The notes under the pieces were generated by a model that saw only the letters and a list, made by a program, of their open reading frames with translations, was not told where the DNA came from and did no database searches. From contig CAVTNP010000001.1 of NCBI GenBank assembly GCA_963736195.1, forward strand, positions 1,717,068 to 1,781,067: a DNA stretch of 64,000 nt. The letters are read 5' to 3'. Of the stretch, positions 7,640 through 59,166 are shown one piece after another (within the stretch, counting starts at the first letter, position 1; every line of letters begins with the position of its first letter). This stretch comes from Ignavibacteriota bacterium (lineage in GTDB: Bacteria; Bacteroidota; Ignavibacteria; Palsa-1295). The translations under genes and the position numbers were made by a program.

Positions 7640-9138
<1,499 letters not shown>

Positions 9139-33727: not shown

Positions 33728-35902
33728 TCAATTGAAAGGCGCGGCGCGCTTCAGGAGGTCATCCAATCCGGGCTCTTTTGAGTTTTTTGGTTTTCCGGGA
33801 TGAATGATGGAAACCTGGCATCCTTCCGCGGCTTCGACCAATTGGCGGAACGTTCCTGCACTTGGGTCGGCAATGTAGGCCTGTTTGTTCTCGTTATAAG
33901 CAAACATTTTATTATTAAGCTGCGTACACTCGTTACAACTGGTGCAGCGAGCAGTCTCAATATACGGCTCATCCCCGTGTTGTTCTTCCACTTCGACAAC
34001 GAGCACTTTGTTCGCTTTCGCAGGCTCCGCAACAACCAGCGTAGCGACCGATTCTTTAACAGGCTGCGCCGTCGATAATGCTGCATTGACTTGCGCTTTG
34101 ATCTGCGCGGCGAGCAGGCGTTCCGCGTGGGAATTGTGAATCCCTCCCAGTTCCTGCAGGCTGCGCCACATTTCGCGGCATCGGCGCGTCTCCTGGAAGG
34201 TGCGCCGATCGACAATGGCTCGGTGCAACAGGCCTTCGTTATCAACAACCGTAATAAACGGGACCTTGTCTGAAAATTGTTGAATTTCGCTTTGCAGTGC
34301 CTCTGATAGCGAGAGCATTACTCCACTCGCTTCTATCTTATCTGTGAGTGCAAAATGATCGTAGAATCGGTCATCCATGGCCATAAAATCGGCAAGCGTG
34401 AATGCCAGCATTTCCGCTTTCGCCTGGTGTGCTTCATTCTCGTATTCAAACGCATGCACAGGCCAATCATCGTCGGAACTCGGATTTTGATCGACCACAA
34501 GTCGTGATGCCCAATCCGCACCCGCGGAGGGATCATAAACAATTGCAGGAAATGCACGCGACTCCATTGCCGAAGCCGCAACCAAATAGGGTGGGAACGC
34601 TGTAGTATGTTCGTTAGCGCCAGAAAAGATACTGAACAGAGCAGGACCGTTGTATGATAGACCCCGCATCAATGCATCTCGCGATTGAAAAAGATGCGAA
34701 GCGCTTGATTGGAGTACAAATACATCGGTCAGCCCGATCGCCATCTCTCGCAGTTGGCGCGAACCGGATGCCAGCACCATGTGGCCTTCGGCAATAGCGG
34801 ATGGTTCGAGAATATCGTCAGTTTGGACCATCACCCTAAATGGCAGTCCGGCTGAGAGAGCTTCAATGATATGAGCAGTCTCGTCGGCATCAAGCTCGTT
34901 GCTATTTGTGCAGATCAGATAGTCCGGCAGCTTTGCAAGTTCGTTGGCGTCGAGTCCATTCGCGCCAAAATTCTCGAACACTACATTATGCACTGACTCG
35001 CGATAATCTCCATTCGCTTCAAGTTCTGCGACAGCAAGAGCTTTGAGCAGTTCCACTGCTTCATTGTGACGCTCTTTATATGCCAATAAGGCCTCGGAGC
35101 AACGTTCGAATGAGAATCCATAAGTTCCTGTGCCTTCACCATCTATGGGATAGAATTGTTGATTTTCAAGAACATCGATCAGCCCGCGAATACGTTCGCG
35201 GCGTTCGTCCGTAAGTCGAAATCCTGGCTTTGCATGAAGCAGAATTCGCGACATAGCATCGAAGTTGAAAGCACTCGAGAACGATTCACCAACGGCAGCT
35301 TTCAGACGATCGGGCGCTCGGCCGATCTCCGACACTGCGGTTTCTGCTTCGAGAATTCCGCGAAGTTTTAACAACAATCGTTCGGCCTGCTCGCGGAATG
35401 CCGCTGCTTTAACAGCCTGAACCGCATTCCATGCATGCCGCATAATTCGTGGTGGCAGTTTGGAATCGACATCGACGAGTTCACCATTCGCGTGGAATAA
35501 GTGGAATAATCGCGTGGCGGAGTTCTCGATGGTTTCGTTCTTTCCGGCAAGTCGAGTTACAGCAGCGTTCCAAAGGGTGGCGAAATCACCCGCTCCATTC
35601 TCAGCCAAATCGCGGCGGAGTTCCCGTTCAAGTTCATAGCCGTGACGCGCGATCCTGTCGCGGTCTGGATCGTTGTGAAGGGTTTCAACGGCATCGTCGA
35701 TAAGTCTGCTAAGCGAAAGCACGGCTCGTTCGGTCGAACCCGCTTTGTTGAGCAATAGTGGGAAGTCGTAACGCAGCGAGGTTAGGTCTCGGTGACGGGC
35801 AAAGAGAGCGGGTCGATAATTGCCATCTATCGGCCGCAGACTCGATCCGGTGGTACGGCCCGTGAGATGGAAGGCTATCTGGTGTTGAGGTTGGACTGCC
35901 AT
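33728..35902 (-). CDS. large uncharacterized protein (~725 aa) with a C-terminal single-cluster ferredoxin domain
   Basis: The C-terminal ~60 aa, ...EPYIETARCTSCNECTQLNNKMFAYNENKQAYIADP...AAEGCQVSIIHPG, has the C-x2-C-x2-C...C spacing of single [4Fe-4S]/[3Fe-4S] ferredoxins. The start is taken at the M after the korB stop, since the longest ORF would overlap korB by 62 nt. Confidence 0.65.
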   Translation of the reverse strand: MAVQPQHQIAFHLTGRTTGSSLRPIDGNYRPALFARHRDLTSLRYDFPLLLNKAGSTERAVLSLSRLIDDAVETLHNDPDRDRIARHGYELERELRRDLAENGAGDFATLWNAAVTRLAGKNETIENSATRLFHLFHANGELVDVDSKLPPRIMRHAWNAVQAVKAAAFREQAERLLLKLRGILEAETAVSEIGRAPDRLKAAVGESFSSAFNFDAMSRILLHAKPGFRLTDERRERIRGLIDVLENQQFYPIDGEGTGTYGFSFERCSEALLAYKERHNEAVELLKALAVAELEANGDYRESVHNVVFENFGANGLDANELAKLPDYLICTNSNELDADETAHIIEALSAGLPFRVMVQTDDILEPSAIAEGHMVLASGSRQLREMAIGLTDVFVLQSSASHLFQSRDALMRGLSYNGPALFSIFSGANEHTTAFPPYLVAASAMESRAFPAIVYDPSAGADWASRLVVDQNPSSDDDWPVHAFEYENEAHQAKAEMLAFTLADFMAMDDRFYDHFALTDKIEASGVMLSLSEALQSEIQQFSDKVPFITVVDNEGLLHRAIVDRRTFQETRRCREMWRSLQELGGIHNSHAERLLAAQIKAQVNAALSTAQPVKESVATLVVAEPAKANKVLVVEVEEQHGDEPYIETARCTSCNECTQLNNKMFAYNENKQAYIADPSAGTFRQLVEAAEGCQVSIIHPGKPKNSKEPGLDDLLKRAAPFN

Positions 35903-35912
35903 AGTCGTGTTT

Positions 35913-36905
35913 CTAATTGGGCTGAAGTCCTTCGGGCCACACGGTGAACTTATCGAACTCGGATTCGAGTCCATTTTTGATCAAACTGTTTGTGCGAAGG
36001 CGCGCGTCGTACCTCACATCTTCATAGCAGGGTACGTCCTCGTTGCGGTAAAGTATTCCGACGGGAATGGGGTCAATGCCGGAAGCGATCTCACGCGCCC
36101 GGTTCATATCCGATGGATCGTGTTCTTCCATCTTGGTATAAGTTCTTGCCAGATTGGAATCGATATGAATTCCATCCTCGTGATGCAAGAGGAGCACGCG
36201 CTGCGGATCGTGAAGCCACGGGTCCATAAGCTTTGGCAGCCATTCTGGGCAGCGTTGAATGATCCGAATAAATCCTAACCCTTTATGGTGATAAGCTGCC
36301 GAGATCACTTGATAAAGCACTTCTGGGATCCAATCCACTACTTGTGCAACAAAGGAAACGTTTGAAATGCCAAGCGTAACAGTGAGCGGATTTAAAGCTT
36401 CGAGATAGCTTCCGTGCGGCGTGGTGTTACTTTTAAGGCCGATGGGAGAAGTTGGTGAAGCTTGTTTCTTGGTCAAGCCATAGATCTGATTGTCATGCAG
36501 CATGACTGTCAGATTCATGTTGTATCGAATACCGTGGATCCAGTGTGCGGCGCCGATGCTGCAGCAATCTCCGTCGCCCATATTGACGAAGACTTTCAGA
36601 TCAGGCCGCGCAAGTTTTACTCCTTCTGCGATCGGCAGGGCGCGGCCATGGATTCCGTGGAACCCGTAGGTATTCATATAGTGGGGAAGTCTGCTCGAAC
36701 ATCCGATACCGGAAACGAAAACAGTTTTTTCCGGCGCAAGGCCCTCGTCGCGACAGAGACGCTGCACTGCCGTGAGGATCGCGTTGTCTCCACACCCGGT
36801 ACACCACCGTGGCACGCCTTTTTGGTAATCCTCGAGTTCATGCTGCTCCTCGTAAAGTTGGAGCAGGCATTCATTTGCGCTAATGGTATCTATGGTGTTA
36901 GTCAT
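35913..36905 (-). CDS. korB: 2-oxoglutarate/2-oxoacid:ferredoxin oxidoreductase beta subunit (TPP-binding)
   Basis: CTGCGDNAI...GIGCSSR...GDGDCCSIG are the TPP and Fe-S motifs of the KorB/PorB family. The start is set at MTNTID, which gives a 4 nt overlap with korA. Confidence 0.85.
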   Translation of the reverse strand: MTNTIDTISANECLLQLYEEQHELEDYQKGVPRWCTGCGDNAILTAVQRLCRDEGLAPEKTVFVSGIGCSSRLPHYMNTYGFHGIHGRALPIAEGVKLARPDLKVFVNMGDGDCCSIGAAHWIHGIRYNMNLTVMLHDNQIYGLTKKQASPTSPIGLKSNTTPHGSYLEALNPLTVTLGISNVSFVAQVVDWIPEVLYQVISAAYHHKGLGFIRIIQRCPEWLPKLMDPWLHDPQRVLLLHHEDGIHIDSNLARTYTKMEEHDPSDMNRAREIASGIDPIPVGILYRNEDVPCYEDVRYDARLRTNSLIKNGLESEFDKFTVWPEGLQPN

Positions 36906-38863
36906 GACAGAGCCTCCAGAATCACGCGGCGAACAGTATTCGGTTTTAGTGGTGTGCCTCGGCATTCGCTCCAGCAATCGACATCGACGAGATAGCGAGC
37001 GCGCAAAAGCGTCGCGAGAGCCGAGTAGCGGCGGTTGCTTTCATCGATCATTTCATCCGCAGGAGAATCGCTCCAGTTGTTCTCGATCGTCATGACTTTT
37101 TTGAATCCGGCCATGATCTCTTTTATGCCGGGCGGCATTGGCTGGATAAATGTCAAATGCAGTGACGATACTTTGGTTCCCTCCGCGCGAAGTGCTTCGA
37201 CCGCCTCTTCGATCGCTCCCTTCGAGCTTCCCCAGCCAATCACGAGGAGATCGCCTGTGGCATCTCCAAAAACGGTTGGCGGTGAGAGAGTCTTTTGCAA
37301 CGTCGCGAGCTTTAAGCTTCGCGCACGCATTGCACGCTGGTTAATTTCGGGATCGTACGCAACGTGGCTGTTCTCGTCATGCGCGAGTCCAGTGAGCGTA
37401 TGCATGCCGCCCGGCTGACCCGGGATGAAGCGGCGCGCAAGGCCCGTCTTTGGATCCCAATCGTAGGGTTTCGCCCCAGCGGGAACCGCACTCTGGTCGA
37501 TCGGTGGCGCCAGCCACGCTTCATCGAATACCGGCCGCTTGAACGGCTGCTGGGAACTTGCAAGATTGGCATCCGATAGGATGACGACCACCATGTTGAA
37601 GGTTTCCGCGATCTTGCGTGCAGTAATGACGGAATAGAAACAGTCTTCGATGGTTGCCGGCGCAATTACAACTTTGGGTGCATCGCCATGGCTGCCGAAG
37701 ATGGTGGTCATGAGATCGCCCTGTTCGGTCTTTGTTGGTTGTCCCGTGCTTGGGCCGCCGCGCATTACGTTTACAACGACTAAAGGTATTTCGCCCATTA
37801 CTGCGAGACCAATGGCTTCTTGCTTGAGCGAGTAGCCAGGGCCGGAAGTAATAGTTACTGTACACTTGCCGGCATACGACGCGCCGATCGCAAAGGAACA
37901 CGCGGCGATCTCATCTTCCGCCTGATGTACGATGCCGCCGACCTCCTCGAATACATCGCTCAAATAATGCGATGCGGAGGTAGCGGGCGTGATCGGGTAC
38001 ATTGCGCAGATCTCCATGCCTGAGGCAAGCACACCGAGTGCAAGCGCAGTATTGCCGTTGACCACAATTTGTGGCACTAGCGATTTAACTGCGGGAATCT
38101 CATAAAAGAAATCGAGATTTGCCTCGGCCCATGCGTATCCGGCTTCGAGCAGTGCAATGTTGCTCTCGATGATCTGTGTCGCTTTTTTGCCGAATGTCAG
38201 TGCAACTTGCTCCCGAGCAACCTGCAGATCGAGGCTGTATGTGCGGCAAAGCAACCCGAGGGCAAACATATTCTTCCCCTTGCGTGGATCGGAAACGAGC
38301 TTTCGGCATTCATGCTCCATCGGAATCTCATAGATCTTATATCCTGCAGTTCTTAATTGTGCCAGCGTGTCGGAATACGATTTGACGATCTTCGGGTCGC
38401 GATCTCCACTCCACATTGATTCCAGCAGAATAGTGCAACCGGGCTTCAGTTCATTCGAACGAACTCTTCCAAGAAGAACCTGCTCGTTGAAGGCCACGAC
38501 CAGGTCGGTTTCGTTGCCGCCGTTCGTTACTTGCTTCGTGCCGATGCGGATGCGGTTCCCGCTGGCACCTGCGACGCTGCGGGCGGGTGGCCGAATCTCC
38601 GCCGGAATGATCTCAACCGTCCATACTCCGTTCCCCATGCGGGCCACGATCGAGCCGAACGATTGGCCACATTTCTGCGCGCCTTCGCCGGAATCGCTGA
38701 TGATCTCGACAATATGTTCTTTCAGCCGTATGGCCTTCGCGTGGGTCGTGCCGCCCTCGGCGCGACTAAAGCTGATTGGCTCCATGAGCATGCCGGTGGC
38801 GGCACGCTCCACGCCGCCGTTGGGATTAGTTCTATTCCTGGTGACTTCTTCTACTTCCATCAT
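36902..38863 (-). CDS. korA: 2-oxoglutarate/2-oxoacid:ferredoxin oxidoreductase alpha subunit (gamma-alpha fused type)
   Basis: At 653 aa, with both a gamma-like N-domain and an alpha domain, it resembles the Bacteroidota/Chlorobiota KorA form. It overlaps nfnB by 4 nt. Confidence 0.8.
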   Translation of the reverse strand: MMEVEEVTRNRTNPNGGVERAATGMLMEPISFSRAEGGTTHAKAIRLKEHIVEIISDSGEGAQKCGQSFGSIVARMGNGVWTVEIIPAEIRPPARSVAGASGNRIRIGTKQVTNGGNETDLVVAFNEQVLLGRVRSNELKPGCTILLESMWSGDRDPKIVKSYSDTLAQLRTAGYKIYEIPMEHECRKLVSDPRKGKNMFALGLLCRTYSLDLQVAREQVALTFGKKATQIIESNIALLEAGYAWAEANLDFFYEIPAVKSLVPQIVVNGNTALALGVLASGMEICAMYPITPATSASHYLSDVFEEVGGIVHQAEDEIAACSFAIGASYAGKCTVTITSGPGYSLKQEAIGLAVMGEIPLVVVNVMRGGPSTGQPTKTEQGDLMTTIFGSHGDAPKVVIAPATIEDCFYSVITARKIAETFNMVVVILSDANLASSQQPFKRPVFDEAWLAPPIDQSAVPAGAKPYDWDPKTGLARRFIPGQPGGMHTLTGLAHDENSHVAYDPEINQRAMRARSLKLATLQKTLSPPTVFGDATGDLLVIGWGSSKGAIEEAVEALRAEGTKVSSLHLTFIQPMPPGIKEIMAGFKKVMTIENNWSDSPADEMIDESNRRYSALATLLRARYLVDVDCWSECRGTPLKPNTVRRVILEALS

Positions 38864-40350
38864 TGGGCGACCCTCACTCTCATAAAATTGTGCTCTCGTA
38901 GATCAATACCGAATAATGATCGATCCACCTTGAAAGGACCTACATCCCGAATGCCCAAAAATGCTTTCATACCACGCGCTGCTTTCCTGCCTGCGCCCAT
39001 TGCTTCGATAACAGTCGCCGCGCCGGTGACAATATCGCCGCCGGCGAAAACACCGGCCATCGATGTCATAAGATTGTTATCCGTTTCGATATAACCACGC
39101 TTGTTAAGCTTCAGCTTTGATGTTTGACCAATGATCGGATTGGCGTTCGTGCCGATTGCATAGACCACCTCATCGGTCTCGATCTCGAATTCGCTTCCGG
39201 GAACCGGGACTGGCCGGCGGCGCCCGGAATCATCAGGCTCGCCCAACTCCATTCGTATGCATCGGATAGCATGTACTGAACCTTCACCATCATCCAATAC
39301 CTCGACAGGATTGGTCAGCCAGTGGAACTCGATGCCTTCCTGCTCGGCGTGATGAACTTCCTCCGCTCGGGCGGGGCACTCGGCTTTCGAGCGGCGATAA
39401 ACACACGCGACCGTCTCAGCTCCGAGCCGCTTGCTGACGCGCAATGCATCCATCGCTGTGTTGCCGGCGCCAACAACCACTACATGTTTTCCAAGTGGGA
39501 GTGGTGTATCGACATTCGGAAAATCGCGGGCGCGCATGAGGTTGCATCGCGTCAGAAGTTCGTTCGCAGATAGCACACCGTTGAGCGAGTCGCCTGGAAT
39601 ACCAAGCATCGTAGGATAGCCCGCGCCTGTTCCAATGAACACCGCATGGAATCCTAACTCCTCGATCATCTGCTCGATCGTGAATAGCCTGCCGACAAGT
39701 GTGTTGCACTCGAACTTAACTCCAAGCTGCTTGAGCTTTTCAATCTCTGCATCCACAACGGTATTCGGAAGACGGAAATCGGGAATGCCATAGCGAAGGA
39801 CGCCACCGGCTTCGTGGAACGCTTCGAAGACCGTAACCTCACAGCCGGCTTTCGCCATGTCGGCCGCACAAGCCATGCCGGAAGGCCCGGAACCGACGAT
39901 CCCGATCTTAAAGATGCTTGGTTGAATGTAGGGCTTGTTGACCCATCGGTTCGCGATCGCGAGATCGCCGACAAAACGTTCCAACCTGCCGATCGCTACG
40001 GGAACCAGATTTTCACCAACCGTGCAGACGCCTTCGCATTGGTTCTCCTGCGGGCACACTCGGCCACAAACGGCAGGGAGCAGGTTCGTTGCAGTAATAA
40101 TATCATAGGCTCCGCGAAAGTGGCGCTCGCCGATCTTTTGGATAAATCCCGGAATATCGATCGAGACCGGACATCCTTCGATACATTTTGGATCAGGGCA
40201 GAACAGGCATCGCTCTGATTCACGAATAGCCTCCGCTTCGGTATAGCCGCAGTTTACTTCCTCGAAATTTCGTGCTCGCACATGTGGATCGAGTTCTCGA
40301 ACCGGTGTTCGCTCCTGCGGTATCGTTCGTACTGTACGTTTCTTTGCCAT
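38860..40350 (-). CDS. nfnB: NfnB/SudA/GltD-like NADPH-dependent oxidoreductase large subunit (2x[4Fe-4S] plus FAD/NAD(P) binding)
   Basis: An N-terminal Cys cluster (CLFCPDPKCIEGCP, CGRVCPQENQCEGVC) and two dinucleotide-binding motifs (IVGSGPSGMACA, VVVVGAGNTAMD), as in glutamate synthase small-subunit-like proteins. Confidence 0.8.
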   Translation of the reverse strand: MAKKRTVRTIPQERTPVRELDPHVRARNFEEVNCGYTEAEAIRESERCLFCPDPKCIEGCPVSIDIPGFIQKIGERHFRGAYDIITATNLLPAVCGRVCPQENQCEGVCTVGENLVPVAIGRLERFVGDLAIANRWVNKPYIQPSIFKIGIVGSGPSGMACAADMAKAGCEVTVFEAFHEAGGVLRYGIPDFRLPNTVVDAEIEKLKQLGVKFECNTLVGRLFTIEQMIEELGFHAVFIGTGAGYPTMLGIPGDSLNGVLSANELLTRCNLMRARDFPNVDTPLPLGKHVVVVGAGNTAMDALRVSKRLGAETVACVYRRSKAECPARAEEVHHAEQEGIEFHWLTNPVEVLDDGEGSVHAIRCIRMELGEPDDSGRRRPVPVPGSEFEIETDEVVYAIGTNANPIIGQTSKLKLNKRGYIETDNNLMTSMAGVFAGGDIVTGAATVIEAMGAGRKAARGMKAFLGIRDVGPFKVDRSLFGIDLREHNFMRVRVAQ

Positions 40351-40426
40351 CCGCTTGGGGAAATTATGAATGATGAATTATGAATGATGAATTATGAATG
40401 ATGAAAGTAAAATGAAATGATGCTTC

Positions 40427-41341
40427 CTACACTGATAATTCAGATTCAATCAATTTTTCTTTGATGCCATTCATACGGCAGGTTTCCGACCAGCGTGCTG
40501 TCGCGGCGCGCTCTTCCTCCTTGTAGCGGCGCAGGCGCACCATCAGATCGTCGAAGTCCACTTGGTGGCCATCGAAATCCGGACCATCCACGCAAGCGAA
40601 CTTAACCTGCTCACCGACCTTTACTCGGCACCCGCCGCACATGCCCGTGCCATCAACCATAATGGGATTGAGGCTGACCATGGTCTTGATTCCGGCTGAC
40701 CGCGTTGCTTGCGCGCTCGCTTTCATCATTACAGGAGGACCGATCGCAACAACTTCGTCGATGTCAGCATGCTTTTCGATCGCTTGTTTAATACCATCAG
40801 TCACAAATCCTTTAATTCCAGCCGAGCCGTCATCCGTGCAGATAACAAGTTCGTCGCAAATGCTCCGAAATTTATCTTCCCAAAATATCAGATCTTTGTT
40901 GCGGAATCCGAGGACACCGATCACATAGGCGCCATTTTGCTTCAATGCGCGTGCTTGCGGAAAAACCGGAGCGACGCCCAACCCGCCACCTACACAGATG
41001 ACTTTTTTGGCGTTGGTAATGTGACTCGGAATACCCATCGGCCCTGCCAAGCCATACAGCGAAGTCCCGATCTGGCAGGTTTGCTGCATTTCCAGCGTAG
41101 TCTTGCCGACAGCCTGAATAACGAGCGTGATCGTCCCTTTTTCCCGATCGAAATCGGCGATGGTGAGTGGAATCCGCTCACCGGTTGCATGGGACATCAC
41201 AATGACGAACTGACCGGGCTTTGCCGCGCGGGCCATCATCGGATGATGGACTTCGAGCATGTAGGTCACATCGGAATAATCCTCGCGTGCAAGGATTTCA
41301 AATGTCTGAGCATTGGTGCCGAAGGCAGCTAAATTTTCCAT
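40427..41341 (-). CDS. nfnA: NfnA/SudB/PyrK-like ferredoxin-NADP+ reductase small subunit (FAD plus [2Fe-2S])
   Basis: A PyrK-like fold. The C-terminal GMCGGCRVKVGEQVKFACVDGPDFDGHQVD is the typical [2Fe-2S] Cys cluster of this family. Confidence 0.7.
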   Translation of the reverse strand: MENLAAFGTNAQTFEILAREDYSDVTYMLEVHHPMMARAAKPGQFVIVMSHATGERIPLTIADFDREKGTITLVIQAVGKTTLEMQQTCQIGTSLYGLAGPMGIPSHITNAKKVICVGGGLGVAPVFPQARALKQNGAYVIGVLGFRNKDLIFWEDKFRSICDELVICTDDGSAGIKGFVTDGIKQAIEKHADIDEVVAIGPPVMMKASAQATRSAGIKTMVSLNPIMVDGTGMCGGCRVKVGEQVKFACVDGPDFDGHQVDFDDLMVRLRRYKEEERAATARWSETCRMNGIKEKLIESELSV

Positions 41342-42172
41342 AATAATCCCCCTACATTCAGGAGTATAAAAAATCATACCGAAGCGCTGTTAATCAGACA
41401 TCCTCACGATTCATGGCAAATAAACTAACGAAGTGCCATACAGGGCAAGAGCTGCTTAGTAAGATTTCTTATTTATGGTAAGAAATTTTAATTTTTGCAA
41501 TGGGAGGGGATACTTTCTACAAAACTTGAGCTGTTCGAAACGCTGTGAATCACTGGTTCAGACGGTCGGATGGATGTTCTGAGGCTGAAGGCCATCAAAC
41601 CTTGCCAGTATGAACAAACTCACCCTGAATCCATTCAAGAGGCAGGAAAAGACAATTTGAGCCAAGCCACACAATCCCATAATTCATGGTTCACACAGCT
41701 TCTACACCAGGCCCATGACCACCTGATGGTTCGGCGGACCAGCGAGACAAACTGCACCCTCTTTCTCATCGGTCAGAAATAGATTCAGATGGTTAATACC
41801 ACTAAAAACCGACTCGAGTGCCTTACTGAATGCTCCGAGCGCTTTCAGTTGGTTGCATGAAATTATACCGTTCGTCTATACGCATACTACGATCGCATTT
41901 TTCTTGGCAGGAATATCAAAATTGACGAAACGAAGCAATCAAACTCCGGAATTAATATTCTTCTTTTTTCGCACTGATGATTTTTGTAAGTGCCAATATT
42001 TAGCGATAATGATTCGCTTCGAAATAGTGAAGTTTGCGTCGCTCACTCTATTGCAATAGCAAACTGAAGACAACATCTGGAGTTGCAACGCCACATTCTC
42101 AGGCCAATCGGAGTGCAGAGAAGGTTTAGCTTTATGAGTGAACGCTCCTGTGTGAACAGTTCTTGAACAAGT

Positions 42173-45310: not shown

Positions 45311-48300
45311 ATGAGAAAAGTCCAGCGCATTCTTTGGGTGAGCATCATGCTGCTTGCTACCATCGCGTTAGCTCCACATTCTGCATTCGCGCAGGTGAGC
45401 ACCTCAACCGATGTTCCCCGCACGCTTAGTTATCAGGGCGTTCTTCAGTCGGACAATGGCGCGCCTGTCAACGGTGTCAAGCCGATGACGATTCGGCTGT
45501 ATTCGGATTCGGCAGGTTCGCAACTTGTTTGGGAAGATGAATTTGCAGTCAACGTGCAGAACGGCGTCTTCAATGTGATCCTCGGATCTCAGAAGCCGCT
45601 GCCCGATGCATCGCAGGTTACGGGTGCCCTCTGGCTGTCAACCCAGATCGGCGATTCGCTCGTCACTGGTTCGCTGACGCAGCTTTCGGCTTCGCCGTAT
45701 GCGCTCACAGTCCCGAACAATTCTATTACAGCCTCGAAAATGGGAACGGATTACGTCGGCTCGATCTCGTTGAATGGTAAGAAAATGACCGTCCGCGGAG
45801 GCGATCTCAATATTGTAACCGACGGTACCCTTCAGGCTACCTATGTGCCGACCTCCAATTCACTGCTTTTGAGCGCAACAGGTGGTGGTAATGGCAGTGG
45901 CAAGGGTAGTGGCAATGCGCTTATGAGCAATTACTGGGGTGAGTCTCCGTATCCGATGAATTACCTTGGGGATATGTGTTACAATGACCAAAACGACAAT
46001 GCCCAGACCCTTGAATGCAATTGGAGTACCCAGAAGATGTTTGTTACCGAGACGGGCACGGGAACACAGGGTTCTGCGCCAACATGGGCCACAATAAATG
46101 CAAGCGATCTTCCGCCGCTCGATAGCTGCACAGGGACGGTTCACGTCTCGAATGGTGGAACCGGCTGCACCTCCTATTCTACAGGTGACTTCTTGTATTG
46201 CTCGGGGTCAAACGCTCTTTCGCGACGCAGCATAGGTTCCGCTGGGCAAATTCTATCCTGCCAAAGCGGCCTGCCGACCTGGCATACACTCTGCGGAAGT
46301 GATCTTCCGGCTCTTGATAGCTGTCACGGCACAGTGCATGCCGCGAACGGAGGTACGGGTTGCACCACGTACAATGTCGGAGATATTTTGTATTGTTCAA
46401 CCGCAGGATCGCTTTCGCGGCTTAGCTGCGGATCAACCGGGCAGATACTGCAGTGCCAGGGCGGAGTTCCAACCTGGCAGCCCTGCCCGTCAGGAACGGT
46501 AACAGGGATTACCTTATCAACCGGATCAACAGGACTCACTGTTAATGGCGGCACGAGCGCCACTGTGAATTCCTCCGGTACATTTTCTATTGCCGGCACG
46601 CTTGCTATCACCGATGGTGGTACCGGCGCAACGACGGCCACTGCAGCGATCAACAATTTGCTTCCATCGCAGACAAGCAATGCGAACAAATACCTGCAAA
46701 CTAACGGCAGCGGAACACTTGTGTGGGCATCCGGCCCAGTTGGAGCTACAGGAGCAACTGGAGCTACCGGTGCCACAGGAGCGACAGGCCCGCAAGGACC
46801 AGCAGGCACGAATGGCGCTACCTGGTGGACTGGTACCACGGCTCCGGCCACGGGTACGGGTAGTGTCAACGATTATTATTTCGAATCCTCCAATGGATAC
46901 GTGTATGAAAAGACAGGAACGTCAACCTGGACTCAGATCGCAAATATCACTGGCCCAACAGGAGCCACTGGTGCAACAGGTGCTACCGGCCCCACGGGAG
47001 CTACCGGAGCAACAGGAGCGACTGGTGCAGCAGGAACGAATGGCCTTACTTGGTTTACTGGGACGACAACCCCAGCCTCTGGCACCGGCGCACTGAACGA
47101 CTTGTACTTTGAGTCGACAAATGGTTATGTCTATCAAAAGACTGCTTCGACAACATGGACGCAGATTGCCAACATCACCGGGCCACAAGGACCTGCTGGT
47201 ACCAATGGAACAAATGGTACTAACGGTACCAACGGAACGAATGGCACGAACGGAACGAATGGTGCCACGTGGTGGAGCGGCACCAGCACGCCATCGACAG
47301 GCACGGGCAGTGTAAACGACTACTACTTCGAATCATCGAATGGCGAAGTCTATCAGAAGACTGGCTCGACGACGTGGACCGCTTTGGCGAACATCACAGG
47401 CCCAACCGGTGCTACGGGCGCAACGGGCGCGACCGGAGCTACTGGCCCGCAAGGTCCACAAGGTATCCAGGGCGCGACCGGTGCAACTGGAGCAACGGGC
47501 GCCACTGGCCCGCAAGGTGTTCAGGGAGCCACCGGCGCAGCCGGAGCGAATGGTGCCACTTGGTGGAGCGGCACCAGCACACCGTCCACAGGAACGGGTA
47601 GCGTAAACGACTACTACTTCGAATCATCGAATGGCGAAGTCTATCAGAAGACTGGTTCGACGACGTGGACCGCATTAGCGAACATCACAGGCCCAACCGG
47701 AGCAACCGGAGCAACCGGTGCCACAGGAGCTACTGGCCCGCAAGGTCCACAAGGTATCCAGGGAGCAACCGGCGCGACTGGAGCAACGGGCGCCACTGGC
47801 CCGCAAGGTCCCCAAGGCATCCAGGGAGCAACCGGAGCTACTGGCGCGACTGGCGCAACCGGCGCCACCGGCGCAGCCGGAGCGAATGGTGCCACCTGGT
47901 GGAGCGGCACCAGCACCCCATCGACAGGCACGGGCAGCGTAAACGATTATTATTTCGAATCATCGAATGGCGAAGTCTATCAGAAGACTGGTTCGACGAC
48001 GTGGACCGCATTAGCGAACATCACAGGCCCAACCGGTGCAACTGGAGCAACGGGCGCGACCGGAGCTACTGGCCCGCAAGGTCCCCAAGGCATCCAGGGA
48101 GCGACCGGCGCGACTGGAGCAACCGGCGCCACTGGCCCGCAAGGTGTTCAGGGAGCCACCGGCGCAGCCGGAGCGAATGGTGCCACTTGGTGGAGCGGCA
48201 CCAGCACACCGTCCACAGGAACGGGTAGCGTAAACGACTACTACTTCGAATCATCGAATGGCGAAGTCTATCAGAAGACTGGTTCGACGACGTGGACCGC

Positions 48301-51300
48301 TTTGGCGAACATCACTGGCCCAACCGGTGCAACTGGCGCAACGGGCGCGACCGGAGCTACTGGCCCGCAAGGTCCGCAGGGTGTTCAGGGTGCAACAGGC
48401 GCCACTGGTCCGCAGGGTATTCAGGGAGCGACTGGAGCAACCGGTGCAGCCGGTGCGAATGGTGCAACCTGGTGGAGCGGCAGCAGCACGCCATCACCTA
48501 GCACGGGATCCAACAACGATTATTACTTCGAAACCTCAAATGGGGAAGTATATCTAAACGTTGAAGGATCGTGGACCGCTATAGCGAATATCACTGGCCC
48601 ACTGGAGCAACAGGCGCGACCGGAGCAACGGGTGCCACAGGAGCTACCGGGCCGCAGGGTCCGCAAGGTATTCAGGGAGCAACCGGAGCTACGGGAGCAA
48701 CCGGAGCAAGCGGAGCCACGGGCGCCACAGGCCCGCAGGGTCCCCAAGGTGTCCAAGGTGCGACGGGAGCCACAGGAGAAGCCGGAGCAAATGGTGCGAC
48801 CTGGTGGAGTGGTACAAGTGCACCGTCATCAAGCACCGGATCGAATAATGACTATTATTTCGAAACTTCGAATGGCGAGGTTTATGAAAAGATCAGTGGT
48901 TCCTGGGGTAATGGGATCTCCAATCTCACCGGGCCGCAGGGTCCGCAGGGTGATGTTGGCCCAACAGGCACAAATGGAACGAATGGCATCAACGGTACCA
49001 ATGGCACCAATGGCGCGACGTGGTGGTCTGGAACTTCGACACCTTCCTCCAATATCGGCTCGAATAATGATTATTATTTTGAATACTCGAACGGAGAGGT
49101 TTACGAAAAATCTTCTAACACGTGGTCAGAAGTAGCAAATATTACAGGCCCAACTGGTCCGATGGGAGCCACAGGCGCAACTGGAGCAACTGGCCCACAG
49201 GGTCCGCAAGGAGTTCAGGGCGAGACAGGCGCAACCGGAGCAACTGGCGCACAAGGTGCGACGGGAGCCACAGGTGCAACTGGAGCGACCGGCCCACAGG
49301 GTCCACAAGGTATTCAGGGTGCTACTGGAGCAACCGGTGCCACCGGCGCAGCCGGAGTGAATGGTGCCACTTGGTGGAGCGGCACCAGCACACCGTCCAC
49401 AGGAACGGGTAGCGTAAACGACTACTACTTCGAATCATCGGATGGCGAAGTCTATCAGAAGACGGGTTCGACAACTTGGACAGCTTTAGCGAACATCACA
49501 GGCCCAACCGGCGCAACAGGAGCGACGGGTGCAACTGGAGCACAGGGTCCGCAAGGCATTCAGGGTGCGACCGGACCACAGGGTCCGCAAGGCGTACAGG
49601 GTGCGACGGGTGCAACTGGCCCACAAGGTACGCAAGGCGTTCAGGGTGCGACGGGTGATACTGGCCCGCAGGGACCGCAAGGCGTGCAGGGTGCAACTGG
49701 TGCACAGGGACCACAAGGCCCTGCTGGCAACAATGGAACGAATGGAGCTACCTGGTGGTCTGGGACGACTTCACCATCCTCAAGCACCGGAGTCAACAAC
49801 GATTACTATTTCGAAACCTCGAATGGCGAGGTTTACGAGAAAATTAGTGGTGCATGGGGTAATGGAATTGCCAACCTGACTGGCCCACAAGGCCCACAAG
49901 GCGATGTTGGTCCTGCCGGATCCGATGGTACTAATGGTATCAACGGAACGAATGGAACCAATGGAGCGACTTGGTGGTCAGGAAGCTCGACACCATCATC
50001 GAGCATCGGTTCGAATAACGATTACTATTTCGAGTACTCGAATGGCGAGGTATACGAAAAGTCAGCTGGGACGTGGTCAGAGGTTGCCAATCTCACCGGT
50101 CCTGAGGGTCCACAGGGTCCTGCGGGTCCAAGTTCACTCTCAACAAGCACGAGTACCAGCGGCTCCGGATTCTTGGTTGCTAATGGTTCTAATGTGACGT
50201 TCGAGAGTGCCGTCAACCTGGCTTCTTCTGTTTCCGGTACACTTGCGGTCAGCAATGGCGGTACAGGTACTACCACAGCGCTCAGCACAGGCAGCGTCGT
50301 GTTTGCAACGTCTGGCGGGACATACACTGAGGATAATAACAACCTCTACTGGGATCAGACCAACCACCGGCTCGGTATCGGGACAACATCTCCGGGACAA
50401 TCACTCGATATTAATGGTACTGTGCAGATCGAGAACATGCCTACCGGAAGCACAACCGAAAATGTCGTGACTGCGGATGATAATGGTGTTCTCTCGGTGA
50501 TCCCGGCTTCTGATCTTATGGGAACGGGTTCCGGTCTCCAGGGCGGATCATGGCTCATTCAAGGTAATTCTGGAACTGATCCGAGCCAGAACTTTGTCGG
50601 GACGACCGATGCGAACGATCTTGTATTCCGGACCAATAATACCGAATTCATGCGAGTTCAGTCTGGCGGAAATGTCGGTATCTGGACTACAACGCCGAAT
50701 GCGGCCCTTGAAGTGGATGGATCCTTCTTAGCGTCTGGAAGCACAGGAGCGGCTCCTGCGTCAGGTGCTGGAACGCGACTGATGTGGGATCCCGATAACG
50801 CTGCATTACGCGCGGGTTCTGTCGATGGCACCCAATGGGATGAGGGATCGAGCAACATTGGCTCGAACTCGATGGCCTTTGGGTATGATGTTACGGCATC
50901 TGGTGCATACGCGTTGGCATCTGGGAATTACTCCAACGCAAGTGGCGCGAATGCCACAGCGATGGGTAATTCGGCGTCAGCGAGTGGTAATACTTCCGTA
51001 GCCATTGGATATAACACTGCGGCAGGCGGAGATTATTCTACCGCACTGGGCTATTTAACGCAGGCGAACTACAACTACTCCACCTCGATGGGTAGTGGTA
51101 CCGAAGCCAACAACCAATACGCAACCGCGATGGGTAACGGCAGCTATGCTGGCGGGAATAGTTCGACGGCGATGGGATACCAGACTCAGGCGAACGGAGA
51201 TTTCTCCACGGCTATGGGTAACGCTACGCAGGCGACTGGAGAGTATTCAACGGCTATGGGTTATGGAACCCTTGCAACGGCGCAGTCCTCTTTTGCAATT

Positions 51301-52197
51301 GGCGAACAGGGCTCGGAAGCAACTGCCGAAGCTTCGATGGCAGCGGGTATCGGCACCACTGCAGAAGCAATGGACGCGACAACATTTGGCGAAAATACTA
51401 TTGCTAACGCAGAGGGAGCCACCGCTTTCGGAAACACTACGAATGCAAGCGGATTGTACTCGGTCGCATTCGGCACTTCCACGACAACGACGGGAAGCAA
51501 TTCAGCTGCCTTTGGTGAGAATGGAACGACTGCCGGAGGAGAGGCTTCTGTGGCGATGGGTAATGATGCCCAGGCGAGCGGAGCTTATTCGCTCGCAATT
51601 GGCAATACTACCACTGCCAGCGGTTCTTCTTCATTCGCATCGGGTAACAGCAACATTGCGCAAGGTGCAAATTCGATCGCCATTGGATATAATTCTGACG
51701 CCTATGGCGACAATTCAGTCGCTATGGGAGTCGATGCCTCAACCGGCGTTGGGACGACCTATTACAACAATTCGTTCGTCTATGGTGATGGTTCTGCATC
51801 AACACTCAGTGATGCATCAAACGAATTCACCGTCCGCGCTTCGGCTGGATTCGAATTCTACGATAATGCGACCACTGCGCCAGACATGACCCTTGCAAAT
51901 GGGCAGCTCAATGTGAGTGGCACAGTCCGAGTAGGCGGCAGCATCGTTGCTACCTCAAGCAGCACGGCGCAATCGTCGGATAATGGCGTGACCGTCTCGG
52001 ATGTACCGGTCTTTATTATTTCAGCCGGTTCTACATCGGGTGCATTCGCACTGACCATGCCAAGCGGTTCGATCACCGGTGACATGATCGTCGTTATTAA
52101 TCAGGACCCGAACTACTGCGCTACCTATGGCTCGACTGCGAAAGTTGCACCGCTCGGTTCGCGCACGTTCTACTTCGACGGCAGCAACTGGCAGTAA
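45311..52197 (+). CDS. giant secreted fibrous protein (~2300 aa if the frameshift near 48600 is bridged): collagen-like G-X-Y tracts alternating with 12 copies of a ~46 aa WW...DYYFE...NGEVY...ANITGP module, NGGTG tail-fibre-like repeats, and a YadA-head-like SxAxG repeat region
   Basis: Signal peptide [28 protein letters not shown]. The two ORFs 45311..49135 and 48571..52197 are the same gene in different frames; the second ORF resumes the GATGATG collagen repeat. Approximate domain map: Cys-rich NGGTG repeats at 46080..46740, collagen/module array at 46740..50140, Hep_Hag-like repeats at 50880..51780. Confidence 0.75.
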
Positions 52198-57846: not shown

Positions 57847-59166
57847 ATGGCAATCAATCCAAGTAAACTAACAGTTAAGTCGCAGGAGGCGCTGCAGGCG
57901 GCTGTCGAGATCGCAGCGAATTACGGAAATAACCAGGTAGAGCCGGAGCATTTGCTTGCCGCGCTTATTCAAGATCCCGAAGGTGTAGCAACCTCGGTGC
58001 TGCGAAAACTTGGGGTAAATATCGACCAGCTACGCGTTCGTGTGACCGGCGCGCTGGAAAAGCTTCCGAAGGTGACCGGTGCGCAGGGTGCGAATCAATT
58101 TGCCTCGAATAATCTGAACAAGCTGTTCGATGTTGCCCGCAAGGAAGCTGAAGCGCTGAAAGATGAATACGTCTCGACTGAGCATTTGTTGCTTGCATTG
58201 CTCGATGGCAGCACGGCTTCGGCCAGGCTCCTCAAGGAGCATGGTGTCACAAAAAACAGCGTGCTTACTGCACTCCAATCCGTCCGTGGCACCCAGCGTG
58301 TGACCGATCCCAATGCCGAAGAACGCTACCAATCGCTCGAAAAGTACGGACGCGACCTGACCGAAGCGGCGCGCAAAGGCAAGCTCGATCCCGTTATCGG
58401 GCGCGAGGAAGAAATCCGCCGCGTGATGCAGGTGCTATCGCGCCGCACGAAAAATAATCCCGTCCTCATCGGCGATCCGGGAGTGGGGAAGACGGCTATC
58501 GTTGAAGGCATCGCAAATCGTATCGCGTCCGGCGATGTGCCGGAGGGATTGAAAAGCAAACGCATTGTTGCGCTCGATATGGGAACGCTCGTCGCTGGAA
58601 CCAGTTTTCGCGGTCAGTTCGAGGAACGATTAAAAGCGATCGTGAAAGAAGTTGCGGAGTCCGCCGGAGAAATAATTCTATTTATAGACGAACTCCACAC
58701 GCTCATCGGCGCCGGTGCTACGCAAGGCGCGATGGATGCGGCGAACATCCTGAAACCAGCGCTTGCTCGCGGTGAATTGCACACCATCGGTGCAACCACG
58801 CTCGATGAATATCACAAGCACATTGAAAAAGATGCCGCGCTCGAACGCCGGTTCCAGCCCGTCTTTGTTGGCGAGCCAAGCGTGGAGGATACCATCTCCA
58901 TTCTGCGCGGATTGCAGGAAAAATATGAAGTGCATCACGGCGTTCGCATTCGCGATGCCGCGCTTATTGCCGCCGCGCAGCTTTCGGATCGCTATATTGC
59001 CGACCGTTTCCTTCCCGACAAAGCCATAGATCTTGTGGATGAAGCCGCCAGCAAACTCCGCATCGAAATAGATTCCATGCCCGCCGAACTCGATCAGATC
59101 GAACGGCGCATCCGGCAGTTGGAGATCGAGAGGGAGGCGTTGAAACGGGAACAGGCAGCGGCGTGA
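57847..59166 (+). pseudogene. clpB: clpB N-terminal fragment (N-domain plus NBD1 plus start of M-domain, 439 aa); gene truncated
   Basis: Clp N repeats, Walker [14 protein letters not shown], ...[44 protein letters not shown], and then a stop. Full-length ClpB is about 860 aa, and NBD2 is absent from the rest of the window. Confidence 0.7.

Follow-up and report, generated by a model that had tools for sequence, protein, structure and literature searches.

2-Oxoacid:ferredoxin oxidoreductases (OFORs) and Nfn enzymes hold a central place in low-potential electron metabolism and in CO2 fixation. Coupling of an OFOR to pyridine nucleotides is known from the phenylglyoxylate:NAD+ oxidoreductase (PadEFGHI) and the 2-oxoglutarate:NADP+ oxidoreductase (KorABC) of Azoarcus evansii, and PFOR-CPR fusions, in which the OFOR is a pyruvate:ferredoxin oxidoreductase (PFOR), occur in Euglena and Cryptosporidium. 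We know of none among these systems with a complete NfnAB pair or with a pseudo-PFOR scaffold carrying a tethered ferredoxin, and to our knowledge it is poorly understood how two-subunit KorAB enzymes find their ferredoxin partners in aerobes. Here we describe a cluster of five genes at positions 33728-41341 (minus strand) of a 64-kb stretch of DNA from an Ignavibacteriota bacterium, referred to below as the window. The cluster encodes NfnA-, NfnB-, KorA- and KorB-like proteins and, as its fifth gene, a 724-residue protein that we call X (33728-35902) and that ends in a small ferredoxin domain.

X is tied genomically first to KorAB and, in most sampled lineages, also to NfnAB. Since it is encoded beside KorAB and usually beside NfnAB, X probably serves as a private electron link within a redox module for 2-oxoacids and NAD(P) that has not been described before. 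The component families KorAB and NfnAB, the Fer4_13 ferredoxin and the PFOR superfamily are already known; the X family, its pseudo-PFOR nature, the tethered ferredoxin and the conserved nfnAB-korAB-X operon were not found in full text, Pfam, NCBIfam or the Protein Data Bank (PDB).

Architecture and ancestry of X

The sole Pfam or NCBIfam match in X was to Fer4_13, at residues 649-701 (25.7 bits; cut-off, 24.5). A confident AlphaFold2 model computed from 28 homologs (predicted local distance difference test [pLDDT] score, 81; predicted template-modelling score, 0.73) divides the protein into four parts. Residues 1-320 (34943-35902) form a mostly helical domain with no convincing relative in structure or sequence, residues 321-590 (34133-34942) an alpha/beta domain that resembles a degenerate PFOR domain VI or OFOR beta subunit, residues 591-645 (33968-34132) a flexible linker or tether, and residues 646-724 (33731-33967) a ferredoxin domain with a single predicted [4Fe-4S] cluster and a conserved C-terminal tail, all encoded on the minus strand. 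The sequence-only reading of this DNA had found nothing it could place in the N-terminal ~660 residues and had proposed structure prediction as a check. Its verdict holds for Pfam and NCBIfam, which are silent there, and for residues 1-320, which are helical and match no known fold, but not for residues ~320-590, which the model places in the PFOR family as a remote homolog of domain VI.

Structure comparison likewise puts the alpha/beta domain in the PFOR family: the top 17 Foldseek matches were all single-chain PFORs with a probability of 1.0, and residues ~320-590 display the PP-type fold that binds thiamine diphosphate (ThDP). A trace of this relationship was also detectable in sequence: a profile built from 62 homologs with 30-58% identity to X (profile A2) matched the Moorella PFOR with an E value of 0.0015, aligning profile positions 357-483 with PFOR residues 978-1118. 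PDB searches with the X sequence by itself or with a narrower profile (A1) returned the ferredoxin only, hhalign saw no similarity between A1 and an alignment of KorB sequences taken from the loci (probability, 0.4%), and the curated models TPP_enzyme_C and PFO_beta_C (Pfam) and PorB_KorB (NCBIfam) did not match X at E ≤ 0.01.

The catalytic signatures of the parent domain have been lost. The ThDP-Mg2+ motif GDG-x(25-30)-N/DTE is absent from X. At positions 333-335, which are equivalent to GDG as placed by a length-based alignment to KorB, outside the HMMER alignment to PFOR, X of the window reads TNS, and these columns vary across the 62 homologs. The second half of the motif, LVLDTEVYSNTGGQ in PFOR, corresponds in the A2 alignment to VMVQTDDILE in X. 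The Cys that ligates the proximal [4Fe-4S] cluster in the PFOR segment YAPCINHG is likewise missing from the corresponding IFSGANEH of X, and just one of the 62 sequences has a Cys in that column. Judged by its motifs and predicted structure, X is probably a degenerate, non-catalytic relative of PFOR.

Longer members of the family point to how X arose. These proteins of 1188-1460 residues carry an extra N-terminal part that matches PFOR domains I-II and III, and a profile of eight of them aligned to the Desulfovibrio africanus PFOR (E = 5e-22) in three collinear stretches, with profile positions 134-329, 468-629 and 1034-1125 corresponding to PFOR residues 135-329, 464-632 and 1021-1116, respectively. 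Because the fused forms are collinear with PFOR, we conclude that the X family descends from a full-length PFOR paralog. The domain IV-V region, which includes the internal two-cluster ferredoxin, was swapped for the helical domain, domain VI lost its catalytic motifs by decay, and a one-cluster ferredoxin was appended at the C terminus; X of the window is the form that lacks domains I-III as well. We hold this structural and evolutionary part of our account with high confidence. A recent duplication of korB was considered as the origin of X and rejected, since the structure of X resembles single-chain PFOR more than the beta subunits of two-subunit enzymes and its fused forms are PFOR-collinear.

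The ferredoxin domain has the ligand set C653-x2-C656-x2-C659...C695 and a ferredoxin fold, and from this sequence it is predicted to carry a single [4Fe-4S] cluster. These four are the only nearly invariant Cys residues across the 62 diverse homologs; Cys 145, 268 and 575 were considered as ligands of a further Fe-S site, outside the ferredoxin domain, and set aside, being only partly conserved. An initial assignment of the domain to the Pyrococcus furiosus type was correct as to the C-x2-C-x2-C...C motif but not as to the nearest relative, the closest solved protein being D. africanus Fd I rather than the P. furiosus ferredoxin. After the last Cys, the domain continues in a strongly conserved tail, HPGKPxNPxEPGL..L..RA..F. 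The linker before it is predicted to be disordered (pLDDT <50 at residues 612-642), is rich in Ala (20%), Glu (14%) and Pro (10%), and varies from 44 to 116 residues (median, 65) among 63 family members, measured from a conserved W-x-L-Q-E-L motif to the first cluster motif. In two alignments, identity to X of the window was 68-80% for the ferredoxin domain, 38-58% for the PFOR-like domain, 31-56% for the helical domain and 20-33% for the linker, the least conserved part.

The family is large and has gone largely unnamed. A word-indexed search with X gave 1372 matches, and a search of clusters at 50% identity gave 2063 representatives at E ≤ 1e-3, 836 of them at E ≤ 1e-30. Where cluster members in public databases carry a name, it is "ferredoxin" or "hypothetical protein"; no PDB entry matched X beyond its ferredoxin, and full-text searches of the literature turned up no account of either X or the nfnAB-korAB operon. 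In transcriptomics of the Riftia symbiont, a "PFOR-like" gene is reported to drop in expression together with dimeric korAB under sulfide limitation (PMC11636981). This gene may be a fused X homolog; if it is, it would provide the first expression evidence for co-regulation.

Gene neighbourhood and partner enzymes

We surveyed the neighbourhoods of X homologs using one genome per species, which yielded at least 509 confirmed loci. The best 80 of these come from Acidobacteriota (Blastocatellia, Pyrinomonadaceae), Kapaibacteria/Ignavibacteria, many Burkholderiales and other Proteobacteria. At loci with enough upstream DNA, and counting only genes in the same order and orientation, korB preceded X in 67 of 68 cases, while korA, nfnB and nfnA lay upstream in all of the loci that could be scored (53/53, 49/49 and 45/45, respectively), which bears out the conserved linkage that had been proposed as a test of the sequence-only reading. 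The same five genes surround members that are merely 36-42% identical to X. At one locus, korA-korB-X faces a convergent nfnB-nfnA pair, and on a partial 4-kb contig, X faces a convergent nfnB-like gene; the association of X with nfnAB therefore survives rearrangement. An 864-residue form of X and a 1460-residue fused form both follow korA-korB.

Clustering of the open reading frames (ORFs) within 4 kb downstream of X and upstream of nfnA revealed no further conserved neighbours. An RnfB-like ORF lies 1-3 kb downstream of X in nine betaproteobacterial loci, and at locus L082 (13845-15537), X is followed by an RnfB-like protein (PF04060 FeS plus a 4Fe-4S dicluster) and another OFOR alpha subunit. 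Of 58 loci, 17 contain an additional, divergent OFOR set. Sets of nfnB-, korA- and korB-like genes that are 25-36% identical to those of the window occur within ~10 kb downstream of X at loci L021, L023, L028, L034, L040, L042, L047, L056, L058, L060, L069, L071 and L079, mostly from Betaproteobacteria, suggesting that OFORs are repeatedly paired with GltD-like flavoproteins.

Pairwise distance matrices of the five proteins from 43 complete loci were correlated, with r values of 0.69-0.88. With a mean p-distance of 0.44 in these loci, X was more divergent than the four enzymes (0.20-0.26). Across phyla, identity to the proteins of the window was 72-92% for the enzymes, the highest values being found at loci L004, L008 and L009, and 46-63% for X. 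Functional coupling of X to KorAB is, in our judgment, very likely.

In the window, the arrangement is just as compact as it had first been read: five co-oriented genes with 4-nt overlaps at the nfnB/korA and korA/korB junctions (ATGA at the latter, read directly from the sequence) and 10 nt between the TAG of korB and the ATG of X. The nfnA gene (40427-41341; 304 codons) begins with an ATG behind an AGGGGG Shine-Dalgarno-like stretch and is followed by nfnB (38860-40350; 496 codons), korA (36902-38863; 653 codons), korB (35913-36905; 330 codons) and X. The same boundaries came out of a separate gene call on a public contig that encodes an identical protein. A 748-codon reading that starts inside korB is unsupported, because homolog alignments begin at Met25 of that version.

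The domain content of the first four proteins agrees with the gene names that they had been given. NfnA, a PyrK-like small subunit for FAD, [2Fe-2S] and NAD(H), matched DHODB_Fe-S_bind and NAD_binding_1 in Pfam and PRK06222 in NCBIfam (385.7 bits; cut-off, 220). Among solved structures it is nearest to the NfnI small subunit of P. furiosus (5jca_S; E = 1.4e-96), and the DGTGMCGxCRV...FACVDGP cluster motif lines up between the two. NfnB, a GltD-like subunit for two [4Fe-4S] clusters, FAD and NADPH, matched Fer4_20, Pyr_redox_2 and TIGR01316 (575 bits; cut-off, 472), and its closest solved relative is Thermotoga maritima NfnB (4ylf_B; E = 8.5e-161), with which its Fe-S motifs align. With family models above cut-off and cluster motifs aligned, both proteins have the cofactor sites of an NfnAB pair. 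The T. maritima and P. furiosus NfnI enzymes are the characterised electron-bifurcating ones, and NfnII is a close non-bifurcating paralog (PMC8097209). NfnB of the window ends in a tail of ~30 residues (~466-496; 38860-38955, minus strand) that is conserved in 44 cluster-linked sequences (LGIRD..Y..LFGID.RERNF.RVRVA) and extends beyond the region aligned to T. maritima NfnB, making the protein ~20 residues longer than the latter.

KorA has the OFOR alpha subunit domain order III-I-II, with matches to POR, POR_N, PFOR_II and TIGR03710 (520 bits; cut-off, 483), and is closest to the alpha subunit of a 2-oxoglutarate:ferredoxin oxidoreductase (OGOR), that of M. marinus (6n2n_A; E = 3.7e-77). KorB, an OFOR beta subunit with one [4Fe-4S] cluster, matched TPP_enzyme_C and PFO_beta_C; its TIGR02177 score (241.6) fell below the cut-off of 261.9. 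Aligned to the beta subunit of the S. tokodaii OFOR (5b46_B; E = 4.5e-52), KorB retains WCxGCGD, GIGCS, GDGD and the Q-x-CP cysteine, so that its GDGD...DN ThDP motif and all four cluster Cys residues are intact. It is slightly closer to this broad-specificity enzyme, while KorA is closest to an OGOR. Neither protein has a ferredoxin domain, and they are therefore of the two-subunit, single-cluster type that needs an external ferredoxin. The KorB terminus carries a conserved G..aE.DK.TvWP motif, and it and the NfnB tail are possible docking peptides.

Upstream of nfnA, a stretch of ~830 nt (41342-42172, minus strand) whose longest ORF is 70 codons is presumably the promoter or regulatory region of the operon; such a gap is unusually long for the otherwise compact window. 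It gave no Rfam match, and no sigma-70-like match was found on its minus strand in a scan that did not cover Bacteroidota-type promoters. The sigma-70 and terminator scan gave counts no higher than expected from shuffled sequence; promoters in this host are probably of other types. Genes neighbouring the cluster encode type IX secretion system sorting domains; like the high enzyme identities at L004, L008 and L009, these suggest that the host probably belongs to the Bacteroidota/Ignavibacteriota-Kapaibacteria group. Elsewhere, the window contains a complete 16S rRNA gene (7640-9132, plus strand; 1502.8 bits), with no match to 23S or 5S rRNA in the 64 kb and no tRNA adjoining the 16S gene, which suggests unlinked rRNA genes. 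Two plus-strand ORFs, 45311-49135 (1274 codons; collagen triple-helix repeats) and 48571-52197 (1208 codons; collagen and YadA-head repeats), overlap by ~565 nt and show a GC content of 58%, vs. ~50%, and a strong AT skew; together they may be a single surface protein, collagen-like or of the trimeric-adhesin type, whose gene is frameshifted, or one start may be mis-extended. A Clp/Hsp100-type ATPase ORF (57847-59166, plus strand; 439 codons) with Clp_N, one AAA module and AAA_lid_9 is about half the usual ClpB/ClpC length and may be a frameshifted or split gene.

Proposed mechanism and alternatives

In our full model, to which we assign a probability of about one half, X is a non-catalytic accessory subunit of KorAB whose tethered ferredoxin links KorAB with NfnAB. 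The body of X would dock on the enzyme assembly, an idea that we derive from the parent domain, since domains of the PFOR domain VI type form subunit interfaces in OFORs. The conserved tails on cluster-linked NfnB, on KorB and on the ferredoxin suggest themselves as docking elements. The ferredoxin would then swing on its linker and carry single electrons between the [4Fe-4S] clusters of KorB and NfnB, and the five proteins together would couple the reaction 2-oxoglutarate or other 2-oxoacid + CoA <-> acyl-CoA + CO2 to NAD(H)/NADP(H) without free ferredoxin. With the stoichiometry of Nfn (PMC8097209), the net reaction would be 2-oxoacid + CoA + NADH + 2 NADP+ <-> acyl-CoA + CO2 + NAD+ + 2 NADPH or, with 2-oxoglutarate as the substrate, 2-oxoglutarate + CoA + NADH + 2 NADP+ <-> succinyl-CoA + CO2 + NAD+ + 2 NADPH. 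Complex formation, the role of the ferredoxin as a swinging arm, the substrate and the direction of the reaction are the parts of this scheme that we infer.

Several observations weigh against this model. The loss of ThDP binding by X is read from motifs and a predicted structure, and D363 and K356 are fairly conserved, so that some ligand might still be bound. NfnAB is not universal: at L082, which encodes the fused 1460-residue form of X, the 6.5 kb upstream contain no nfnAB. The rate of evolution of X is ~1.8 times that of its neighbours, although a core subunit that is tightly integrated would not usually diverge so fast, and none of the best 150 representatives is a natural fusion of X with KorB or NfnB.

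The last two points also speak for the alternative that survives best, namely that X is a dedicated KorAB ferredoxin that diffuses freely and forms no stable complex, with a body that serves stability, protection of the cluster from O2, or regulation, and that NfnAB recycles it like any other ferredoxin. Genomic linkage and a conserved ferredoxin are equally compatible with such a shuttle. Many of the taxa that host X also appear to be aerobic, and in such hosts shielding of a low-potential cluster could matter. A conserved body of 640 residues, an interface domain derived from PFOR and a linker of 44-116 residues would, however, be a costly design for a free carrier. The position of the parent domain at OFOR subunit interfaces argues against free diffusion as well, and the conserved tails on NfnB, KorB and the ferredoxin domain suggest docking. 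On balance, we regard a free shuttle as unlikely.

It is much less plausible that X acts off the main electron path as a factor for the assembly, repair or protection of KorAB, for example as a pseudo-beta subunit that chaperones KorA or as a protein that re-reduces an oxidised cluster. X is itself a degenerate paralog of its partner enzyme, and its linkage to KorAB is more universal than that to NfnAB, as might be expected of such a factor. Yet the ferredoxin domain is the most strongly conserved part of X, and its co-occurrence with the ferredoxin-using NfnAB survives changes of gene order, which points to throughput electron transfer; in addition, the tight gene spacing suggests translational coupling and comparable expression, which would be atypical for a chaperone. 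A second chemical step encoded by the operon, in which the PFOR-like domain keeps a catalytic or ligand-binding role (CoA, acyl-CoA, a nucleotide or non-canonical ThDP), is just as hard to credit, given that the GDG...N motif and the cluster-ligand Cys are absent and the motif columns variable, that the unfused form has no PYR-domain partner of its own, and that the domain is unmatched in Pfam and NCBIfam.

Returning to X as an accessory subunit, its most far-reaching form would be one supercomplex in which a swinging ferredoxin, anchored by the pseudo-PFOR, channels electrons between a bifurcating NfnAB and KorAB. We think this improbable. Were it true, aerobic or microaerobic bacteria without a low-potential ferredoxin pool could drive reductive carboxylation with NADPH (2 NADPH + NAD+ + succinyl-CoA + CO2 -> 2 NADP+ + NADH + 2-oxoglutarate + CoA) and, in reverse, oxidation of 2-oxoglutarate would yield two NADPH. 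Low-potential electrons would be shielded from O2, and the complex would define a new class of self-contained, ferredoxin-tethered OFOR machine.

Significance and comparison with known systems

The operon is widespread, occurring in at least ~500 species-level genomes among which are Acidobacteriota and Burkholderiales that are abundant in soil and freshwater. Should X prove to be a tethered ferredoxin on a scaffold derived from PFOR, it would offer a concrete model for insulated electron transfer between a 2-oxoacid oxidoreductase and NAD(P), and X would be a pseudoenzyme recruited as an electron-transfer adaptor. It would also be a candidate part for engineering NADPH-driven CO2 fixation, and genome-based metabolic models should then drop the dependence of this KorAB on free ferredoxin.

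The proposed module shares its concept with the A. evansii PadEFGHI and KorABC systems and with the PFOR-CPR fusions, all of which join an OFOR core to an Fe-S flavoprotein so that NAD(P)+ is reduced instead of free ferredoxin; they differ in using a single flavoprotein subunit or a fused reductase domain. As two-subunit enzymes, KorA and KorB of the window are ordinary members of the group represented by 6n2n and 5b46. Whereas such enzymes work with free ferredoxin, here the partner ferredoxin is encoded directly downstream and is fused to a PFOR-derived body of ~640 residues. The lipoyl domains of 2-oxoacid dehydrogenase E2 are swinging arms on Ala/Pro-rich linkers, and X resembles them, by analogy only, in having a small carrier, a long, poorly conserved linker rich in Ala, Pro and Glu, and a structural core. 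In X, however, the carrier would be an Fe-S domain that moves electrons and not acyl groups, with a mobility that is presumed from the linker.

Both NfnAB subunits are close homologs of the described enzymes, with aligned cluster motifs and the same architecture (PMC8097209). They differ in sharing one operon with an OFOR and a tethered ferredoxin and in the extra conserved C-terminal tail of NfnB. Bifurcation by this pair is putative. Even a close homolog can be a simple NADPH:ferredoxin reductase, as in the case of P. furiosus NfnII (PMC8097209). Finally, X is most similar to single-chain PFOR/NifJ (D. africanus 1b0p, M. thermoacetica 6cin), with which it shares the domain VI fold and sequence traces at residues ~320-590, and with which its fused relatives are collinear across domains I-II, III and VI at nearly equal residue numbers. 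It differs from these enzymes in lacking the ThDP/Mg motif and the proximal-cluster Cys ligand and, in the window, domains I-III. In place of domain V, the two-cluster ferredoxin of PFOR, X has a helical domain that matches no known fold, and it carries instead a one-cluster ferredoxin at its C terminus, on a long linker.

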